Assembly: GCA_041674225.1 (NCBI GenBank)
Contig: JBAYWG010000001.1
Location: 38,501-102,500 of the forward strand
Direction of reading: 5' to 3'
Source of the DNA: Minisyncoccota bacterium
GTDB lineage: Bacteria > Patescibacteriota > Minisyncoccia > Phycocordibacterales > JAACPR01
Length of the DNA: 64,000 bases
Positions 4,219-58,169 of the stretch are shown here, one piece after another. Numbering within the stretch: position 1 is the stretch's first letter; each line of letters opens with the position of its first letter. A program made the translations under genes and the position numbers. Below the pieces are notes generated by a model that was not told where the DNA came from, searched no databases, and saw only the letters and a program-made list of their open reading frames with translations.

Positions 4219-4944
4219 ATGAACGAAAATAAACTTTTTGTACCAATTTCAATTTTAGTAGCGGGACTGATTATTGCAGGTGCGGTTTTCTTTACTCAAG
4301 ACAGTAGAGCACCAGGTGCACCAACAGACGAAGAGACACCAGTGCAAGTAGAAGTAAAACCAGTGACATCAGATGATCACATCATCGGTGACATGAATGC
4401 AGAAATAGTTATTGTTGAATATTCAGATTTCGAATGTCCATTCTGTGCAAACTTCCATAAAACAATGGATCAAATCATGACAGAGTACGGACCTACAGGA
4501 AAAGTTGCTTGGGTTTACCGACACTTTCCTTTAGATCAAATTCACAAAGAAGCTCGACCAGCAGCGGAAGCTTCTGAATGTGTAGCTAACTTAGGTGGAA
4601 ATGATGCATTCTGGAATTATTCAAAATTATTATTTGCAAATGCTCCAACATCACTTTCTACAGACAATCTTAAATCAAACGCGGTTTCATTGGGAATCGA
4701 CGAAGCAGCTTTCACATCATGTGTTGATGAAGGAAAATTCCGAGATCGAGTAGAAGATAATTACCAAAGTGGTATGGAACTAGCAAAAAATGACAGAAAT
4801 TTTGGAACTCCATATTCTGTAGTGATCACAAAGAAAGATGGTGCACAAATCACAATCCCAGGAGCTCAATCATATAGTGTTTTGAAACAACTTATTGATG
4901 CAGTTCTTGCAGAAAGTGCCCCAGCAGATCAAGCAACAAACTAA
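4219..4944 (+). CDS. DsbA-family thiol:disulfide oxidoreductase (membrane-anchored thioredoxin fold)
   Basis: An N-terminal TM helix is followed by a CPFC active-site motif in a thioredoxin-like context (EYSDFECPFCANFH). Confidence 0.75.
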   Translation: MNENKLFVPISILVAGLIIAGAVFFTQDSRAPGAPTDEETPVQVEVKPVTSDDHIIGDMNAEIVIVEYSDFECPFCANFHKTMDQIMTEYGPTGKVAWVYRHFPLDQIHKEARPAAEASECVANLGGNDAFWNYSKLLFANAPTSLSTDNLKSNAVSLGIDEAAFTSCVDEGKFRDRVEDNYQSGMELAKNDRNFGTPYSVVITKKDGAQITIPGAQSYSVLKQLIDAVLAESAPADQATN

Positions 4945-41202: not shown

Positions 41203-42567
41203 TTAAGCAATTTTATTTGCGTTCTTATTTTGTTCTTTAAAATCTGAGATTTTATTAGAAACAACTTTTAGAGATCTTTGTTTCTTGAAATATAGAGCTA
41301 TCGCTGTACTCCATACTGCGATTAGAGCAAAAATTCCAAGAGCTTTTGCAATATCACTTGCTCCTGTATAAGGAACTTGTGATAGAAAGATTGAATCCAA
41401 AGATGAAAGATTACCTGTTGGTGTACCTAAGTTTGTTCCAGTAGTTACTGTAACTCTTCGGTCATCATCATCATTATCATCGTCATCATCATCCTCGTCT
41501 TCTACACGAACATCAGGACATTCGTCAGTAGCTCGGTCGCCATTAGCGTCACGTACTTCTACTGAAACTTCGTATGTCCCTCTTCGGTTGTAACGAACTC
41601 TTTCTTCGTCATCATCTCCAGAGATATCACCTTTCCATTCAATTCGGTATGATGATCTTCCTCCATCGATTTCAACTTCATAAGTCACTGTGTCTCCTTC
41701 CTCGATTCGAGTATCAGAAACTCTACAGATAATATTTAGATCGTCATCATCGTCATCGTTTGACTGAACAATGTGAGTTGTTGTACTACAATTAACATTG
41801 TTTACACTGCTACTTGCGTTACCAACATTACTACAATGAGCATTAATAGAGTTATCTGTAATAATTACATCGTCATCACTGTAGTTTAGATTTAATCCAA
41901 GAGCGTTCATTCCACCACCTTGTGAACCTCCACCTCCACAACCTGATCCAGAACATCCTCCTCCATTAGAACCTCCACCACCTTGTGAACCTCCTCCATT
42001 ATAACCTCCACCGTTAGATCCTCCTCCAGTGTAACCACCGTTAGAACCTGATCCACCTCCTAGGTAAGAATCGATGTAACTATCTGCTACACCATATCCA
42101 CCATAGTCGTAACCAGCGTAGTCATATCCACCGTAATCGTAACCAGCGTAGTCATATCCACCATAGTCGTAACCAGCGTAGTCATATCCACCGTAGTCGT
42201 AACCAGCGTAGTCATATCCACCGTAATCGTATCCAGCGTAGTCATATCCACCGTAATCGTATCCAGCGTAGTCATATCCACCGTAGTCATAACCAGAGTA
42301 ATCGTATCCACCGTAGTCGTATCCACTGTAGTCATACCCACCGTAATCATAACCAGAGTAATCGTATCCACCGTAATCGTATCCACCGTAGTCGTATCCA
42401 CCGTAGTCGTATCCACTTGATCCATAATCATATCCTCCACCGTAGTCATACCCACCGTAGTCGTATTGAGCTGATGCGTTTTCAATATTGAAAACACCGA
42501 AAGCTGTAAATACTACAAAAAGTAATACGAAAGCGTTAATGATGTTTAATTGTTTTTTGATAATCAT
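41203..42567 (-). CDS. Secreted YDYGG-repeat / Gly-rich / Asp-rich surface protein with a C-terminal VPYTG motif, TM helix and basic tail (candidate sortase substrate)
   Basis: A signal peptide is followed by about 25 copies of (G/S/A)YDYGGYDY, then a GGSNGGG region. An Ig-like segment between poly-Asp runs comes next, and the C-terminus reads VPYTGAS...IFALIAVWSTAIALYF-KKQRSLK. Confidence 0.7.
   Translation of the reverse strand: MIIKKQLNIINAFVLLFVVFTAFGVFNIENASAQYDYGGYDYGGGYDYGSSGYDYGGYDYGGYDYGGYDYSGYDYGGYDYSGYDYGGYDYSGYDYGGYDYAGYDYGGYDYAGYDYGGYDYAGYDYGGYDYAGYDYGGYDYAGYDYGGYDYAGYDYGGYGVADSYIDSYLGGGSGSNGGYTGGGSNGGGYNGGGSQGGGGSNGGGCSGSGCGGGGSQGGGMNALGLNLNYSDDDVIITDNSINAHCSNVGNASSSVNNVNCSTTTHIVQSNDDDDDDLNIICRVSDTRIEEGDTVTYEVEIDGGRSSYRIEWKGDISGDDDEERVRYNRRGTYEVSVEVRDANGDRATDECPDVRVEDEDDDDDDNDDDDRRVTVTTGTNLGTPTGNLSSLDSIFLSQVPYTGASDIAKALGIFALIAVWSTAIALYFKKQRSLKVVSNKISDFKEQNKNANKIA
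42091..42470. repeat. Near-perfect 30-bp tandem DNA repeat encoding the YDYGGYDYxG array
   Basis: The unit gtcatatccaccgtaatcgtaaccagcgta is repeated about 12 times, with only occasional a/g and t/c changes. Confidence 0.8.
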
Positions 42568-43562: not shown

Positions 43563-44600
43563 TTACCTCCTGATTCCAGACATCATTCCATGAATCATCT
43601 GCCCTAGGGAAGGATGATTCTGATGAGAGTCTCTTCCACCTCTTTCACGTTGAAAGTCTTGTAGACATCTCTCCCGATAGTCAGGACGATAAGGTCCTGT
43701 ACGATACATTGGTGACCGCACCGGTGATCGATTATTTGTTGTAAAGAAATTATTTCTTGGCGCCATATGATTCGCCATAAAGAAATTATTTCTCGGCTGC
43801 TCTCTGTAAGAAGTACGGGGATGTGTCGTTGTAAAACAATCATCTCTCGGTAACTCTCTGTAAGAAGTACGAGTAGGTATCACTTCCGCACGATAAATAG
43901 GTTGAGTCCGAACATGTTCTCTCACAACTGGTCGTTCACAAGTAACTTGAGGTTGTCCTATTTCTACACACCCAAGATTCAAGGATGACTCACAATTACC
44001 AACGGTATTTGTCACACCACGAATTTCTCCAAATGTTGTAGAAGCAGCACGACGATTGTCGTGAATGATTGCTGTTCTTCCACGGATTTCTCCGAAGGTT
44101 ACATCCACACTACGACTATCCTCATGAATCATCGTTTTGCCACCACGGATTTCTCCGAAGGAAACATCGACATTTCTGTGGTCTTCACAAATAACGGTTG
44201 CACCGCCACGGATTTCACCGAAGGTTACACTAACACTACGGCTATCATCTTCAATAATAGTCATACCACCGCGAATTTCTCCGAAATTCACAACTGAACT
44301 GCGTTCATCCCGAACAATCTTTATTCCACCATAAACTTCTCCAAAGGTCACGAGGTATTGCTCGGGCTCAGGAGGTTCATCTCCACCGCTCTTGTCCCAG
44401 GGTATACCTGGTGTAGGAACGGGTTTAATATACGGATCACCAAAAAGTGGTATTGGGGGGATTTCGTCGGACTTTTCCGCACCAGGAACTGGTGGAGGAA
44501 GAATGCGACCATCGTCATCAGGCTTTACATTTCCATCATCCGAACTGACATTCACCGACATCATACCAAGCGTGAAAAATATCAAGTAAGTAATTTTCAT
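43563..44600 (-). CDS. Secreted protein with six 22-aa tandem repeats (TFGEIRGGxTxIxEDxRSVxV) and a Pro/Arg/Tyr-rich C-terminal region
   Basis: A signal peptide and Pro-rich linker are followed by the repeat block, then a Cys-containing segment and an R/Y/P-rich tail (SYRELPR.../SYREQPR...). Confidence 0.55.
   Translation of the reverse strand: MKITYLIFFTLGMMSVNVSSDDGNVKPDDDGRILPPPVPGAEKSDEIPPIPLFGDPYIKPVPTPGIPWDKSGGDEPPEPEQYLVTFGEVYGGIKIVRDERSSVVNFGEIRGGMTIIEDDSRSVSVTFGEIRGGATVICEDHRNVDVSFGEIRGGKTMIHEDSRSVDVTFGEIRGRTAIIHDNRRAASTTFGEIRGVTNTVGNCESSLNLGCVEIGQPQVTCERPVVREHVRTQPIYRAEVIPTRTSYRELPRDDCFTTTHPRTSYREQPRNNFFMANHMAPRNNFFTTNNRSPVRSPMYRTGPYRPDYRERCLQDFQRERGGRDSHQNHPSLGQMIHGMMSGIRR
43990..44350. 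repeat. Imperfect ~66-bp tandem repeats (6 copies) encoding the FGEIRGG 22-aa units
   Basis: ccacggatttctccgaaggt..., ccgccacggatttcaccgaaggt... and ccaccgcgaatttctccgaaat... recur at about 66-bp spacing. Confidence 0.7.
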
Positions 44601-45518: not shown

Positions 45519-45604
45519 GCGTAGGTGGCAGAGCGGTCAAATGCAGCGGACTGTAAATCCGCCGACTTCGGTCTACGGGGGTTCGAATCCCTCTCTACGC
45601 ACCA
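45519..45604 (+). tRNA. tRNA-Tyr (anticodon GTA), with encoded CCA
   Basis: Cloverleaf by hand: acceptor gcgtagg/tctacgc, anticodon stem gcgga/tccgc, loop ctGTAaa, a long variable arm and the T-loop ttcgaat. Confidence 0.85.
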
Positions 45605-50957: not shown

Positions 50958-52466
50958 ATGGAAACAGAAACTCAGAAAACGGCAAAAAGACCGCCAGTTG
51001 TGGCAATACTTGGACATATCGACCATGGTAAATCTACCCTGCTTGACTATATTCGAAAATCTAACGTAGTTGCAAAAGAGGCCGGAGGTATTACTCAACA
51101 TATCAGTACTTACGAAATAACTCACAAAGACGAGGAACACGGAGAACAAAAAATAACTTTTATTGACACCCCAGGTCACGAAGCATTCTGCGATGTGCGG
51201 TCTAGAGGAGCTGGAATTGCTGACATCGCGATTTTAATCGTGTCTGCAGAAGACGGTGTAATGCCACAAACAGTTGAAGCAATTAATTGCATCAAAAACG
51301 ACAATGTTCCTTTTATAGTAGCAATAAATAAAATGGACTCTCCTCGCGCAGACATCGATAGAACAAAATCTGCTTTAGTTGAAAACGAAGTTTATATCGA
51401 AGGATACGGTGGAGATATTCCTGTTGTGCCTATTTCAGCGAAGACTGGTGAAGGTGTCAATGAACTACTCTCAATGATTCTTTTAGTTGCAGAGATCGAA
51501 GAGCTGAAAATGGATGTCACAAAGAAAGCATCCGGAATTGTTGTAGAAGCAAACAAAGACGAAAAAAGAGGAATCAGTGCAACAGTGATAATCAAAGACG
51601 GTAGTTTAAAGATTGGAGATTTTGTCGCAGGACACACTTCAATGTCACCAGTGAGAAGCCTCGAAGACACTTCTGGAAATAAGTTCAAAGAAGTTCAAGC
51701 TTCATTGCCTATCGTGATTTATGGTTGGACCTCCCTACCCCCTGTTGGAAGTATAGTTGAAGCTTTTGAAACAAAAAAAGAAGCCGAGGATTATTGCAAA
51801 AATTGTTCTGCTCAAACAGTGGATGTGCCTCAAGAAAAAAATATTCAAAGTAAAGCAGACTTAGCTGTGATTCCAATTATCATTAAAACTGATGTTTCAG
51901 GAACGGGTGAAGCAATTAAATTTGAATTAAATAAAATTGAAACAGAAAGAGTAAAATTTCATATTCTAGAAAACACTACTGGAGTAATTGGTGAATCAGA
52001 TATGAAAAAAGCTCTTTCAGATGCACAAACAATTGTTGTAGGTATGGGAGTTGGTATCGATCCACGAGCAGAAGCTCTACGAGAGAGAAACGGTACAATT
52101 GTGATGACTTTTAAAATCATTTATGAATTAGTAGATTGGTTGAAAAAAGTTATCAATGAAAGAACTCCTAAAGTTATGGTGGAAGAAATTGTTGGCGATG
52201 TAAAAGTGTTAGCAATTTTTAATCAAACAAAGAAAAATCAAGTGCTTGGAGGAAAAGTAACTACTGGAGTAATCTCTTTGGGAAATACAGTAAACATTTT
52301 GAGACGAGGAGAAAAAATTGGTTCAGGAATAATTAAAGAACTTCAACAACAAAGAGTTGCAACAAAACAAGTTCAAGAAGGAAATGAATTTGGCACATCA
52401 ATCGCATCAGAAACAGAAATAGCACAAGGCGACACACTGGAAGTTATTACTAAAATTGAAAAATAA
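50958..52466 (+). CDS. infB: Translation initiation factor IF-2 (short form: G domain plus C-terminal domains only)
   Basis: It has G1 GHIDHGKST, G3 DTPGHEAF and G4 NKMD. The protein is 502 aa and is followed directly by rbfA. Confidence 0.9.
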   Translation: METETQKTAKRPPVVAILGHIDHGKSTLLDYIRKSNVVAKEAGGITQHISTYEITHKDEEHGEQKITFIDTPGHEAFCDVRSRGAGIADIAILIVSAEDGVMPQTVEAINCIKNDNVPFIVAINKMDSPRADIDRTKSALVENEVYIEGYGGDIPVVPISAKTGEGVNELLSMILLVAEIEELKMDVTKKASGIVVEANKDEKRGISATVIIKDGSLKIGDFVAGHTSMSPVRSLEDTSGNKFKEVQASLPIVIYGWTSLPPVGSIVEAFETKKEAEDYCKNCSAQTVDVPQEKNIQSKADLAVIPIIIKTDVSGTGEAIKFELNKIETERVKFHILENTTGVIGESDMKKALSDAQTIVVGMGVGIDPRAEALRERNGTIVMTFKIIYELVDWLKKVINERTPKVMVEEIVGDVKVLAIFNQTKKNQVLGGKVTTGVISLGNTVNILRRGEKIGSGIIKELQQQRVATKQVQEGNEFGTSIASETEIAQGDTLEVITKIEK

Positions 52467-52805: not shown

Positions 52806-52877
52806 GGCGTGGTGGTGAAGAGGTAACACCGGAGTTTGCAAAACTTCTATGCGCAGGTTCGATTCCTGTCCACGCCT
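52806..52877 (+). tRNA. tRNA-Cys (anticodon GCA)
   Basis: Acceptor ggcgtgg/ccacgcc, anticodon stem ggagt/acttc and loop ttGCAaa; the molecule is 72 nt. Confidence 0.8.
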
Positions 52878-52899: not shown

Positions 52900-52981
52900 G
52901 CCCGGATGGCGGAATTGGTAGACGCCCTCGACTTAAGATCGAGTATCGTAAGGTGTGTGGGTTCGAGTCCCGCTCCGGGCA
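52900..52981 (+). tRNA. tRNA-Leu (anticodon TAA)
   Basis: Acceptor gcccgga/tccgggc, anticodon stem ctcga/tcgag, loop ctTAAga, a long variable arm and the T-loop ttcgagt. Confidence 0.85.
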
Positions 52982-53004: not shown

Positions 53005-53077
53005 CCGCCTATAGCTCAGCTGGTAGAGCAGTCGCCTCTTAAGCGAACGGTCGTAGGTCCGAGTCCTACTAGGCGGA
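53005..53077 (+). tRNA. tRNA-Lys (anticodon CTT)
   Basis: Acceptor ccgccta/taggcgg, D-arm agctcagctggtagagc, anticodon stem tcgc/gcga with loop ctCTTaa, and T-arm gtagg-tccgagt-cctac. Confidence 0.8.
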
Positions 53078-53239
53078 CAAGCGAGCAAATAAGGAAGTGT
53101 GTTTTACATTTCCTTATTTGCGAGCGCGGACGCCTTGCACGAAGTTCAGGCGGACAAGCGAGCAAATAAGGAAGTGTGTTTTACATTTCCTTATTTGCGA
53201 GCGCGGACGCCTTGCACGAAGTTCAGGCGGACAAGCGAG
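53072..53239 (+). repeat. 77-bp direct tandem repeat (2.2 copies) that begins with the last 6 nt of tRNA-Lys; each unit contains a 15-bp palindromic hairpin
   Basis: Units start at 53072, 53149 and 53226. The third unit is truncated after ggcggacaagcgag. Each unit carries gcaaataaggaagtgt-gtttt-acatttccttatttgc. Confidence 0.85.
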
Positions 53240-53293
53240 TGAAATATGTACAAGCACTGGCGCATTTTATTTTAACTGATAAAATCGCTACAT

Positions 53294-53375
53294 GCCGAGA
53301 TGGCGAAATTGGTAGACGCACTTGCCTTAGGAGCAAGCGGGGTGACCCATGGAGGTTCGAGTCCTCTTCTCGGCA
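53294..53375 (+). tRNA. tRNA-Leu (anticodon TAG)
   Basis: Acceptor gccgaga/tctcggc, anticodon stem cttgc/gcaag, loop ctTAGga, a long variable arm and the T-loop ttcgagt. Confidence 0.85.
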
Positions 53376-53410
53376 CAAATATATACAAATTACATCCAAA
53401 TATTTTCAAA

Positions 53411-53446
53411 GCAAAAAGTGGCTCTGCAGAGCCACTTTTTGCTTTT
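53411..53446 (+). terminator. Intrinsic terminator after the tRNA cluster
   Basis: gcaaaaagtggctc-tgca-gagccactttttgc is followed by TTTT. Confidence 0.5.
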
Positions 53447-53482
53447 AACTCCCCTACTACCTTTTTATCTTATGATTGACTT

Positions 53483-55253: not shown

Positions 55254-55499
55254 TTAAGCTCCAAAAATAGATTTCTTAAAAGCTTCCAGGATTGCAACTG
55301 CCGACAACATAATAAATATTCCTACTAATCCCCACAACATATGCTTAGCACCTTCTTCTCTTTTTCCTGGTTCATCTGCTCCGCGTATGTATTGAGCGAT
55401 ACCCCAAACAAATATCAGAATAGCAAAACCAAACAATAATGTTATCGTCGGGTCTAAAATTACTTCGGCTATTTTTTTTACTAGTCCAGATGCATCCAT
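55254..55499 (-). CDS. Small two-TM protein, VirB2/TrbC-like pilin paralog 1
   Basis: The 81-aa ORF shows TM1 ...FGFAILIFVWGIAQY, a charged loop, then HMLWGLVGIFIMLSAV. This shared module is found in all six genes of the array. Confidence 0.5.
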   Translation of the reverse strand: MDASGLVKKIAEVILDPTITLLFGFAILIFVWGIAQYIRGADEPGKREEGAKHMLWGLVGIFIMLSAVAILEAFKKSIFGA

Positions 55500-55514
55500 T
55501 TTTCTAAACTTTTA

Positions 55515-55901
55515 TTATCCTTGAACTTTTGGAATAGCTGGAGCTGTAGGTGTGCTTGTATTTAATTCTAGAGAGTCTCTCAAGATATTTACAAGTCCCC
55601 ATACAGATACCATCACAAACAATGCAATGATTCCCCAAAGCATGAAAGTTCGTCCTTCAGCTTTTCCAGCATCACTTGAATTCAAAACGTATTTCAAAAC
55701 TCCCCATAGGAATACAAGTACTCCAAGTCCGATAACGATAGGAATCAAAGCTTGAACAATTCCTCCTAACATTCCGATAAGTTTTTTTATACCTTCATCC
55801 CCACCTCCTTGTTGTGGCAATTGTTGAGCCAAAGTGATTACAGGTAATGCAAATGCAAATGCAATTACAGAAAGTCCTTTTACACTACTAATTTTTTTCA
55901 T
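55515..55901 (-). CDS. Signal-peptide plus two-TM protein, pilin-like paralog 2
   Basis: The 128-aa ORF has a signal peptide followed by LIPIVIGLGVLVFLWGVLKY, an SSDAGK loop and FMLWGIIALFVMVSVWG. Confidence 0.5.
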   Translation of the reverse strand: MKKISSVKGLSVIAFAFALPVITLAQQLPQQGGGDEGIKKLIGMLGGIVQALIPIVIGLGVLVFLWGVLKYVLNSSDAGKAEGRTFMLWGIIALFVMVSVWGLVNILRDSLELNTSTPTAPAIPKVQG

Positions 55902-56008
55902 AATTAAATTATTATTTTTATTTACAATAAACCGGATATAACGGTATGAATAAATTATAGCACTTAAAAAACTAATAAAACTAATACCAGCGAGAGCTGT
56001 GGAATATT

Positions 56009-56308
56009 TTATTTTCCAGCGGCTTCGGCACTTTTAAACTGCGGTATATTTAATCCTGATTCATCCAACAAAGATTTTTGCAGAAGTAGAACCAGACCCC
56101 ACACCGCAATCAAAACAAATAGAGCAACTAGTCCATAAGTTATTGTTTGAACACTCTCCGTTCTTTTTGAAGCGTTATCACTATGTGTTAAATATTTCAC
56201 AATCCCAAACAAGAAAAAGAATAAGGCTACTGCAGCACCTAATCCTGTAAGGTTTTGTATTATTACTAAAATATTTTCTACAATTGTTGCGTATGATATG
56301 TCTTTCAT
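56009..56308 (-). CDS. Two-TM protein, pilin-like paralog 3
   Basis: The 99-aa ORF shows LFFFLFGIVKY, a HSDNASK loop and ITYGLVALFVLIAVWG. Confidence 0.5.
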   Translation of the reverse strand: MKDISYATIVENILVIIQNLTGLGAAVALFFFLFGIVKYLTHSDNASKRTESVQTITYGLVALFVLIAVWGLVLLLQKSLLDESGLNIPQFKSAEAAGK

Positions 56309-56312
56309 AAAA

Positions 56313-57377
56313 TTATTGTATAATTAAAGAGTCTATTGGTATATTCTGTTTACCGAGTGTTGGTTGCTGCTCTAAATTGATCCCGACAGTATCACCAATC
56401 ATTTTTGTAAATCCCCAAACACCAGCCAAAACTAATAGTAGTATAATTCCCCAGGTCATGTAAGCAACAGCTTCCCCTTTTTTCTTTGCATTTTCTGTAG
56501 TGGTGTATTTAAAGACTCCCCACAGAAACAGGAATATTCCAATTGTCACCAAAAGAGGTAGAGCAGTTTGGACTATATCCATTAATTTTATAATAGAAGT
56601 ATTTATACCAGCTCCACCGGCAGAATTAGTCTGTGTGGGCGGGTCAATTGTAGGTTTTGTCGTAAGATCTTCGACTGCTTCACCTGAGCTCCCTGGTTCA
56701 GCCGGATTTGTATCGCTGAAAATTGTTTGTTGCAAAATAACCACAAATCCCCAAACAAAAACCATCACCGTAATAGCGACGATTCCCCAAGTCATAAAAC
56801 TTCTCGCTAACTCTTTGTTTTTGGCATCCGTAGAAAATGCATAGCGCAAAACTCCAAAAAGAAACAACAGAACAGCAAGCAAAATTACAATCGGTATAAC
56901 ATCCGCAACAATATCTCCAACTATTTTCAATCTATCCAAAATTGGTGTACCCCCAGATAATCCAGAGCCCTCTGATTTTGGAATTTCTTTCAATCCAGCA
57001 ACTTCTTTTTCAGGAGCACGACTATTATCAGTCCCTCCTAAAAATGCATCTTGTAACAAAAACACAATTCCCCAAATAGAAACCATGACAAAAAGAGAAA
57101 TAATTCCCCAAGTCATAAATCCTATTGATTCCTTTTTACTTTTCGGATCAGGAGAAGAAAGATATTTCAAAATTCCCCACAGAAATACGAGTAAACCAAG
57201 ACCAATAACAATCGGGATCAACCTTTGTACAGCATCAGCAATAGTTTCCAAAATTTCTGTAGCTGTTTTACCAGAAGAACCACCTACCCCTGCATCAGCT
57301 GGATTTTGAGCAAATGAAATTAAAGGTAGTAGTAGTCCAGCGAGAGTAAAAATTGTTTTTTGAATAATTTTTATCAT
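56313..57377 (-). CDS. Triple tandem fusion of the pilin-like two-TM module (354 aa, signal peptide)
   Basis: The LIPIVIGL...FLWGILKY...SxDxKxK...FMTWGII...VWG unit occurs three times, separated by Gly/Pro/Ser-rich linkers. Confidence 0.55.
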   Translation of the reverse strand: MIKIIQKTIFTLAGLLLPLISFAQNPADAGVGGSSGKTATEILETIADAVQRLIPIVIGLGLLVFLWGILKYLSSPDPKSKKESIGFMTWGIISLFVMVSIWGIVFLLQDAFLGGTDNSRAPEKEVAGLKEIPKSEGSGLSGGTPILDRLKIVGDIVADVIPIVILLAVLLFLFGVLRYAFSTDAKNKELARSFMTWGIVAITVMVFVWGFVVILQQTIFSDTNPAEPGSSGEAVEDLTTKPTIDPPTQTNSAGGAGINTSIIKLMDIVQTALPLLVTIGIFLFLWGVFKYTTTENAKKKGEAVAYMTWGIILLLVLAGVWGFTKMIGDTVGINLEQQPTLGKQNIPIDSLIIQ

Positions 57378-57381
57378 TTTT

Positions 57382-57747
57382 TTATCCAGAAATTTGTTTT
57401 ACAGTATTGTCTATCACTCGACTCAAAACATGAGCTCCTAAAATAACCATACCTCCAACAATTACCCAGAAGAAAGTTTGTTTTGCTTTTTGCAATTCAC
57501 TTTCATTTCCTTGAGCTTTAACAAAAAGAAATCCAGCATAGATAAGAAAGAACACTGCGATAATTGCACCGAACTCTACAACCACTTTAAGAAACTTTTC
57601 CACCAACTGTTTTAGATCTGTCGATTTGATTGGATTCGGAAAATTGATTGTTTCTGCATGTGCAGATGAAAAAATTACAAAGTTCATGAATATTGAGGTA
57701 AATAACCCTGATGTAATGTATGTAATTTTTTTAATTTTATTTTTCAT
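57382..57747 (-). CDS. Signal-peptide plus two-TM protein, divergent pilin-like paralog 5
   Basis: The 121-aa ORF shows AIIAVFFLIYAGFLFV, a QGNESELQKAK loop and FFWVIVGGMVILGAHV. Confidence 0.45.
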   Translation of the reverse strand: MKNKIKKITYITSGLFTSIFMNFVIFSSAHAETINFPNPIKSTDLKQLVEKFLKVVVEFGAIIAVFFLIYAGFLFVKAQGNESELQKAKQTFFWVIVGGMVILGAHVLSRVIDNTVKQISG

Positions 57748-57755
57748 AAATGTAA

Positions 57756-58169
57756 TTAAAATCCTGTTGGTAAAAATGTTTTATCTACCTCTAATGTCTT
57801 TGTGATTGCCTGCACTATAAGCCAACCAGCAGAAGCTAGGAAAAATCCAATCACAACATTTTGCAAAATTCTATGTGCTGTTTGTATTTTACCAGTATCC
57901 CCAGCTGCTGTTAAATATAATCCACCTGCATACACAATAAATATTACAGATACAAGTACGGCAAGTTGCAAGGCGTAATCTTTGACTTTGTTAATCATTT
58001 CTTTAAAAGCATTCCAATCACAGCTTTTTACATCATTACAGTTTACCAAAGGATTATTTGCATTCACTTGAGTTCCGGAACCAGATTGAGCCGAAACCAC
58101 AAATGGCACAGTCATGATCAAAATCACCGCGAGAATAGTTAGATTTGAAATTAGTTTTGATTTAATCAT
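57756..58169 (-). CDS. Signal-peptide plus two-TM protein, divergent pilin-like paralog 6
   Basis: The 137-aa ORF shows LAVLVSVIFIVYAGGLYL, an AAGDTGK loop and ILQNVVIGFFLASAGW. Its stop overlaps the start of the SBP gene. Confidence 0.45.
   Translation of the reverse strand: MIKSKLISNLTILAVILIMTVPFVVSAQSGSGTQVNANNPLVNCNDVKSCDWNAFKEMINKVKDYALQLAVLVSVIFIVYAGGLYLTAAGDTGKIQTAHRILQNVVIGFFLASAGWLIVQAITKTLEVDKTFLPTGF

Follow-up and report, generated by a model that had tools for sequence, protein, structure and literature searches.

A structurally constrained element joined to the tRNA-Lys 3′ end in one clade of Candidatus Paceibacterota

Comparable elements at tRNA genes

The spacers of bacterial tRNA operons can themselves give rise to RNAs, the precedent being the sponge RNA 3′ETS-leuZ of the E. 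coli glyW-cysT-leuZ operon (PMC8383071, citing Lalaouna et al., 2015). The element described here is a tandem repeat at positions 53071-53239 of a 64,000-nt stretch of contig JBAYWG010000001.1 (hereafter the window), whose 77-nt unit begins within the tRNA-Lys(CTT) gene and is present as a single copy in several related genomes. Comparison of six lineages suggests that the unit is a selected, non-mobile structured RNA element, a reading to which we give a probability of about 0.7. The element is undescribed, structurally constrained, fused to the 3′ end of tRNA-Lys, and restricted to one group of Candidatus Paceibacterota (candidate phyla radiation), in which it lies directly behind tRNA-Lys(CTT).

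The unit has several properties in common with 3′ETS-leuZ. Both lie in the spacer of a polycistronic tRNA cluster that includes Cys and Leu tRNAs (transcription being predicted in the present case), and both are structured, about 75 nt long, and have ends at tRNA-processing sites, those of the unit again being predicted. The E. coli RNA differs in having no similarity to the unit in sequence or structure, no flanking duplicate of a tRNA 3′ end, and no pairing with a tRNA acceptor strand. The element belongs with the structured spacer elements of tRNA operons. Candidate phyla radiation bacteria have, to our knowledge, yielded very few non-coding RNAs so far, and neither a partner RNA nor an Hfq-type chaperone is known from them.

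Repeated tRNA 3′ ends also occur as attL and attR, partial tRNA copies that flank elements of kilobase scale carrying an integrase (PMC9897764). The unit is like these in that its repeat contains the end of a tRNA gene and in that some relatives have a precise empty site. It is unlike them in the shortness of the interval (62 nt), in the lack of integrase and foreign cargo, in the conservation and structural constraint of the interval, and in its flanking genes, which are ancestral.

Short helices that copy an acceptor stem and discriminator offer another comparison: plant mitochondrial t-elements, the mascRNA of MALAT1, and acceptor minihelices. A helix of this kind can be drawn in the unit, and may likewise be placed where tRNA end-processing enzymes could set the end of an RNA. 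The mimic in the unit differs in having five acceptor-identical pairs (8-9 bp, with a bulge) and no T-arm, and its cleavage is predicted. We know of no description of a bacterial tRNA-trailer processing mimic of this kind.

Intrinsic terminators too are hairpins downstream of stable-RNA genes, but the unit has a long AT-rich stem with no U-tract, and another tRNA gene of the same cluster follows it; the canonical GC-rich hairpins with U-tracts in this genome are elsewhere (after tRNA-Tyr, and at 53405-53448). Finally, the doubling of the unit in the window resembles other short tandem duplications produced by slipped-strand mispairing or unequal crossing-over, with exact head-to-tail copies bounded by a pre-existing 15-bp repeat and a copy number that varies between otherwise identical genomes; nothing about it is unusual for this class.

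Anatomy, relatives, and fold of the unit

The array has a period of 77, 2.2 copies, 100% identity, and no indels (Tandem Repeats Finder, score 338), and a repeat search gives two exact 77-mers, at 53071-53147 and 53148-53224. A preliminary description, made from the letters of the window alone, had reported this head-to-tail repetition of the tRNA-Lys 3′ end with the nucleotides that follow it, and did so correctly. Its three copies also stand, each starting one base earlier than described (53071, 53148, and 53225, rather than 53072, 53149, and 53226), and the tRNA portion is present but comprises 7 nt (AGGCGG plus the discriminator A) instead of 6.

The layout is A-B-A-B-A, with A of 15 nt and B of 62 nt, all on the plus strand. 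tRNA-Lys(CTT) occupies 53005-53077 (ARAGORN; Rfam RF00005, 64.1 bits), and its last 7 nt, AGGCGGA (53071-53077), open the first repeat, A1 (53071-53085; AGGCGGACAAGCGAG), which consists of six of the seven 3′ acceptor-strand bases, the discriminator, and an 8-nt trailer. Exact copies follow at 53148-53162 (A2) and 53225-53239 (A3). A2 is equivalent to the second repeat, A′, of the single-unit allele, and marks the junction of the tandem duplication, where one unit passes into the next as GAAGTTC-AGGCGGACAAGCGAG-CAAATAAGG; after A3 comes the ancestral trailer (TGAAATATG…), whose orthologue flanks the empty site. The expectation from shuffled sequences is 0.03 copies of this 15-mer, and none of 100 shuffles reaches three. 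The other tRNAs of the window were checked for a repeated 3′ end, and none has one.

B is made up of a 16-bp hairpin, HP1, and a 27-nt module, B3′. The first copy of HP1 (53085-53121) is closed by G53085-C53121 and has a single G.U pair and a GUUUU loop; the repeat search places the second at 53162-53198. The G.U pair had been noted in the preliminary description, whose stem of 15 bp is one pair too short and extends into an irregular rod. These are the only two copies of the palindrome in the window, where shuffles lead one to expect none. The stem is AT rich and is followed by GAGCGCGG; the absence of a U-tract after it, as originally described, is seen both in the sequence and in a terminator scan, which does not report the hairpin. 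An intrinsic terminator was rejected for want of a U-tract. The first copy of the module (CGAGCGCGGACGCCTTGCACGAAGTTC) is at 53121-53147, and the second at 53198-53224 (repeat search, and comparison with a single-unit contig). Its CGCCT pairs with the AGGCG of A, making of A and B together an irregular rod of 30 positions; as RNA, this CGCCU is identical to positions 2-6 of the 5′ acceptor strand of tRNA-Lys. An open reading frame (ORF) listed at 53097-53279, which had been dismissed as spurious, was likewise rejected here: no gene is called there in an identical contig in ENA, and it is not conserved as coding sequence in relatives.

Loci from relatives were fetched through homologues of IF-2 (77-87% IF-2 identity), with one DNA-pattern scan of JGI metagenomes in addition. 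The pattern used in the latter combined the module with A′ and included GGCGGA, so that copies beside other tRNAs were out of its reach; it returned one locus (L026), in the same spacer between tRNA-Lys and tRNA-Leu. Comparison of this spacer among relatives, a check proposed in the preliminary description, shows an orthologous single unit at the same place in five further Paceibacterota lineages (L021, L023, L026, L027, and L032), and a clean empty site, with one A and then the same downstream flank, in another five (L016-L019, L024, L028, L029, and L030). The parts of the unit come in the same order throughout: the end of tRNA-Lys, CAAGYGAG, a perfect hairpin of 11-16 bp, CGARCG(AA)GGACGCCTAGSACGWAGTTC, and a second (A/T)GGCGGA, which in four lineages is followed by the same trailer. 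Direct repeats in the relatives are 15-22 nt long, reaching into the trailer, and unit length ranges from 72 to 80 nt among the lineages. On an IF-2 tree the filled state is found in two clades, with one empty genome nested among filled ones; this distribution is most simply explained if the unit was lost repeatedly, through deletions between the direct repeats.

One detail of these repeats stands apart. In L021 (6212-6225) and L032 (about 4722-4736), which belong to different IF-2 clades, A′ is degenerate in the same way (TGGCGGA.A.TGAAG), while elsewhere it follows A exactly; the likeness hints at concerted evolution or at exchange between lineages.

The predicted architecture is common to the six units, whose z-scores lie between -4.2 and -6.2. 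Read inwards, the rod opens with an outer stem, (U)AGGCG/CGCCU(A), which is followed by a tandem G.A/A.G and a single C-G pair. Beyond a small internal loop come a step of two pairs (G-C and Y-R), another tandem G.A/A.G with a G-C pair, and lastly the AT-rich hairpin. A covariance model (R1) was built, and covariation was counted on its alignment of the six units. Of the cells, 97.8% are paired, a figure that falls to about 36-47% if the 3′ partners are slid; changes on both sides are found in 9 of 25 pairs, a count reached in none of 500 shuffles. The pair formed by columns 14 and 58 (UA in three lineages, CG in two, UG in one) joins the tRNA trailer (CAAG-Y-GAG) to the module (CGA-R-CG). The hairpin shows compensatory changes across the six lineages: the hairpin's base pair reads C-G in the window but G-C elsewhere, stem position 7 is A-U, U-A, or C-G depending on the lineage, GG/CC in the window stands for AA/UU elsewhere, and the arm lengths shift together. 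The clearest non-Watson-Crick pairs in the helices (the hairpin G.U in the window, a U.G in L021) are G.U in the orientation of the tRNAs and would be A.C mismatches on the other strand, which points to an RNA of the sense strand.

Conservation is uneven along the unit. The module (27-28 nt) has a mean identity of 89% among the lineages, where the hairpin has 72% and the cluster's other spacers have 62-71%; the module evolves more slowly than the neighbouring spacers. With the tRNA removed, the unit folds as the hairpin together with a second one, CGCC(U)/(A)GGCG, ending in GA.

It is the covariation across six lineages that makes a small structured RNA, offered as one alternative in the preliminary description, the best reading of the unit: a clade-specific structured RNA in a tRNA operon spacer, with a mimic of the tRNA-Lys acceptor stem, whose function we infer. 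No known family was recognized. Rfam 15 at its gathering threshold reports tRNAs only, and at E≤10 over 53060-53300 nothing is better than E=1, with noise (miRNA precursors, the hsp17 thermometer) at 12-16 bits, far below gathering. A pattern for the hairpin core, run against GTDB genomes, matched unrelated perfect palindromes only (in Firmicutes and one Spirochaetia metagenome-assembled genome) and no relative, and nothing specific was found in the literature on structured RNAs or tRNA-processing oddities in these bacteria.

Origin, doubling, and possible action of the unit

The doubling can be considered separately from the unit itself. A contig in ENA (ERZ27247358 k141_1090819, here L001) reads A-B-A, exactly one 77-bp unit fewer than the window, with unique flanking sequence directly after A′; over the 8190 and 5319 nt on the two sides of this indel (13.5 kb) there are no mismatches. 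Since the two are identical save for one unit, the doubling is either very recent or an assembly difference. In the single-unit allele A and A′ are 77 nt apart (L001 8114 and 8191), and slippage or unequal exchange between the 15-bp repeats would therefore produce exactly the sequence of the window. The copies are exact, a short direct repeat bounds them, and copy number differs between near-identical contigs, all as expected for slipped-strand or unequal-crossover events; slipped-strand duplication, another of the alternatives proposed at the outset, accounts for the second unit. The second unit is thus a product of ordinary direct-repeat dynamics (slippage or unequal recombination), or possibly an assembly artefact. 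A real, direct-repeat-mediated doubling seems distinctly probable, and its combination with a selected, non-mobile structured RNA somewhat better than an even chance.

The artefact would be an untrimmed join of contigs overlapping by a 77-mer, or a loop in the assembly graph walked twice, the true genome being A-B-A. It would fit the L001 contig, a MEGAHIT assembly of the same strain with one unit and no other difference, as well as the complete identity of the two units and the many independent short-read assemblies that end inside the tRNA cluster (L016-L020, L022, L025, L033, and L035). An arbitrary join at a 77-mer overlap, however, gives the product seen only if the contig end falls within one particular 16-nt interval, and the junction of B-end, A, and B-start is one that a de Bruijn assembler cannot make without supporting reads. 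There remains a minor though appreciable chance of such an artefact, which would touch the copy number only and not the element. The assembly breaks in the cluster are in themselves likely due to tRNA sequences common to co-occurring relatives.

The tRNA fragment within the repeat had led the preliminary description to consider a duplicated att core or decayed att site, with A and A′ as attL and attR cores and B as the last remnant of an element that brought in the SPFH-like and pilin genes downstream. The 15-nt direct repeat does hold the last 7 nt of the tRNA gene, L024 and L028 have a precise empty site, and partial tRNA copies are typical of integrations; known cases, however, have elements of kilobase scale between the repeats (PMC9897764) where this one has 62 nt. 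The supposed remnant is conserved, with compensatory evolution. That no integrase is present, as first described, holds for Pfam scans of the ORFs at 45.6-63.7 kb, in which neither a tyrosine nor a serine recombinase was found, and for the Pfam lists of related loci. As for the genes said to have been delivered, every relative with a contig that extends to them (six, at 79-86% IF-2 identity) has rbfA, tRNA cluster, SPFH-like gene, 167-aa gene, and pilins in one and the same order; three of these have the unit (L021, L023, and L027) and three the empty site (L024, L028, and L029). The SPFH-like and pilin genes therefore did not arrive with anything inserted at this site. A matching attP would carry AGGCGGACAAGYGAG beside B sequence; neither the unit nor the tRNA-Lys 3′ end with its trailer has a match in INPHARED phages or PLSDB plasmids (blastn of 53040-53300), or in IMG/VR (patterns for the hairpin, module, and 3′ end). 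The integration reading is largely refuted and must be considered very improbable. A duplicated tRNA 3′ end thus need not signal the integration of a mobile element, a point to bear in mind where the limits of genomic islands are drawn from tRNA fragments. Another reading is a small palindromic insertion, mobile but non-autonomous or else selfish, like a miniature inverted-repeat transposable element or a repetitive extragenic palindrome. Such an insertion, with a 15-22-bp target duplication and no host function, would suit the patchy distribution on the IF-2 tree, the direct repeats of local sequence around a perfect palindrome, and the resemblance of the L021 and L032 elements, which is closer than the tree suggests. 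Patchiness is explained equally well by deletion between direct repeats, and the element is always at the same locus: in answer to an earlier proposal to look for other copies, the covariance model finds none, whether in the 64-kb window itself or in the related loci (about 109 kb), and the single JGI match is the same locus again. The palindrome is internal rather than terminal (8 nt from the tRNA end, 27 nt from A′), a target duplication of 15-22 bp is unusual for a transposon, and one covarying pair ties the resident tRNA trailer to the insert. We consider an insertion of this kind unlikely.

The similarity to both acceptor strands might also be that of a decayed tandem duplicate of tRNA-Lys, a neutral relic whose second copy lost its body and kept the two strands and the trailer. 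The CGCCUA of the module does equal tRNA positions 2-7, A′ equals positions 67-73 with up to 15 nt of trailer, and a unit of 72-80 nt is near tRNA size; but local alignment of the tRNA body with the unit is no better than that of shuffles (759-1926 of 3000 score at least as well), ARAGORN and Rfam recognize no tRNA in the unit, and in a neutral relic neither a covarying hairpin nor a module at 89% identity would survive where other spacers are at 62-71%. A mere relic is improbable; as the origin of the unit, a partial tandem duplication that took in the tRNA end and its trailer is plausible and compatible with a selected structured RNA. Direct repeats and palindromes are typical of operators, and the module, a repeated AGGCGGAC, and the palindrome might together bind a protein that controls a promoter-like sequence 30-110 bp downstream. 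This sequence (53257-53293, plus strand, directly upstream of tRNA-Leu(TAG)) was read from the sequences, and a consensus promoter scan does not list it; it is conserved and the element lies just upstream of it, and the module is itself conserved in sequence. In the palindrome, however, it is the pairing that is conserved and not the sequence, unlike a sequence-specific dimer site, the G.U asymmetry argues for sense-strand RNA, and the promoter-like sequence is unchanged in the five lineages without the element. A DNA-level site of this type seems quite unlikely.

If the unit is a structured RNA, as we prefer to read it, it is most likely co-transcribed with the tRNAs: the cluster begins 11 nt past the end of rbfA (52794), repeat and terminator scans find no terminator between rbfA and 53405, and the first canonical terminator-like hairpin, a GC-rich inverted repeat with T-runs and 22-nt arms (95% complementary), comes after tRNA-Leu(TAG), at 53405-53448. 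The four clustered tRNAs (Cys, Leu-TAA, Lys-CTT, and Leu-TAG) have no encoded CCA and are each followed by CAA(G/A), as in the relatives, with CAAG after tRNA-Cys and tRNA-Leu(TAA), and so need endonucleolytic 3′ processing. The element would act as RNA, and in the precursor two partners would be open to the module: the 3′ strand of the tRNA, with which it forms the rod, and A′. When the whole precursor is folded at minimum free energy, A goes into the rods, and the tRNA 5′ strand pairs with the last A copy. Once the tRNA had been cut off at its discriminator, the module might instead join A′ in a short hairpin with the equivalents of acceptor pairs 2-71 to 6-67 and of the discriminator A; this hairpin has G-A at its end, and in most lineages the CAAG trailer comes next. 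The tRNA 3′-end endonuclease could then cut after this pseudo-discriminator as well, releasing one unit of 72-80 nt (about 75 nt), or two such RNAs from a two-unit transcript. Alternatively, the rod might compete with the acceptor stem and so tune tRNA-Lys maturation. The 15-bp A repeats would have yielded the second unit through replication slippage or unequal recombination; the same event in reverse would leave an empty site, and units gained and lost in turn might keep A and A′ identical.

This specific mechanism of processing through an acceptor mimic is put forward tentatively. It is conceivable, if rather doubtful, that it goes further: that the acceptor helix of tRNA-Lys is rebuilt in miniature by the module and the duplicated 3′ strand, and that RNase Z, possibly with the CCA-adding enzyme, would accordingly excise each unit; that the module would also capture the real 3′ strand, as a two-state switch for tRNA-Lys(CTT) maturation in these bacteria of reduced genome; and that copy number would serve as a fast-evolving dosage control. 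The RNA-processing toolkit of candidate phyla radiation bacteria is reduced, and such a mechanism, if true, would be a compact example of tRNA-processing signals co-opted to make or regulate another RNA.

Several points weigh against the selected structured RNA and its doubling. Half of the related lineages are without the element, which is therefore dispensable. The covariation comes from six lineages, some of them close (L026 and L027), in an alignment fitted to the structure. Next to no variation is seen in the outer stem or the acceptor-mimic hairpin, so that the pairing of neither has support from covariation (the outer stem never varies because one of its sides is the tRNA itself). The mimic has U.U for one of its inner pairs in the window, and five acceptor-like pairs, in a helix of 8-9 bp with a bulge, are few for a substrate of tRNA 3′ processing. 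Perfect palindromes that stay perfect could also be kept so at the DNA level, and we infer transcription and processing from position alone. As to the doubling, its period of 77 is a standard SPAdes k, as the artefact described above would have it.

The tRNA cluster and its neighbours

The cluster comprises, in order, tRNA-Cys(GCA) (52806-52877), tRNA-Leu(TAA) (52900-52981), tRNA-Lys(CTT), the array, tRNA-Leu(TAG) (53294-53375), which bounds the spacer downstream, and the terminator-like hairpin; all of the tRNAs are on the plus strand and were found by both ARAGORN and the Rfam tRNA model. Upstream are genes for ClpB, a trypsin-like protease, and an aminotransferase (minus strand), then DUF4446, a short IF-2, and RbfA (plus strand). 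Database matches to the IF-2 protein assign the organism to Candidatus Paceibacterota. Downstream, the SPFH-like gene is followed by the 167-aa gene (no Pfam family), a run of PF18895 pilin genes, and genes for a solute-binding protein, a methyltransferase, and GyrA.

The promoter-like sequence upstream of tRNA-Leu(TAG) is kept in species with and without the element, as TTGGCA-17-TAGAAT in the relatives. It is at the same time an inverted repeat whose arms vary by lineage, with their complementarity kept: GGCAAATTC/GAATTTGCC in relatives, as against GCGCATTTTAT/ATAAAATCGC in the window. tRNA-Tyr (45519-45604), outside the cluster, has an encoded CCA and a canonical terminator of its own. The T-loop of tRNA-Lys (T-arm 53053-53065) has C at position 55 in the window and in L021 (GGTCCGAGTCC), where the other relatives have TTC (GGTTCGAGCCC); U55 of the tRNA T-loop is normally almost invariant.

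Three relatives have an ORF of about 290-340 aa on the opposite strand in this region (L030, 5049-6005, minus; L031, 4555-5418, minus; L026, 9376-10398). L030 has it inserted between tRNA-Leu(TAA) and tRNA-Lys. The L031 copy comes after tRNA-Leu(TAA) and that of L026 adjoins tRNA-Lys, neither of these two loci showing both tRNAs. No Pfam family is on record for it, and a direct Pfam scan of the 318-aa L030 copy found none. Its position makes the cluster a site of gene gain, although the repeat is no att scar.

The PF18895 (type IV secretion system pilin) run consists of six consecutive small genes on the minus strand (55254-58169) and is kept in the relatives. IF-2 (50958-52466) is just 502 aa long, without the long N-terminal region of typical bacterial IF-2, and this is true throughout the clade. 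Long tandem repeats elsewhere in the window, at 42093-42415 (30 nt, 10.8 copies, 88% matches) and 44080-44285 (63 nt, 3.3 copies), are probably inside coding sequence.

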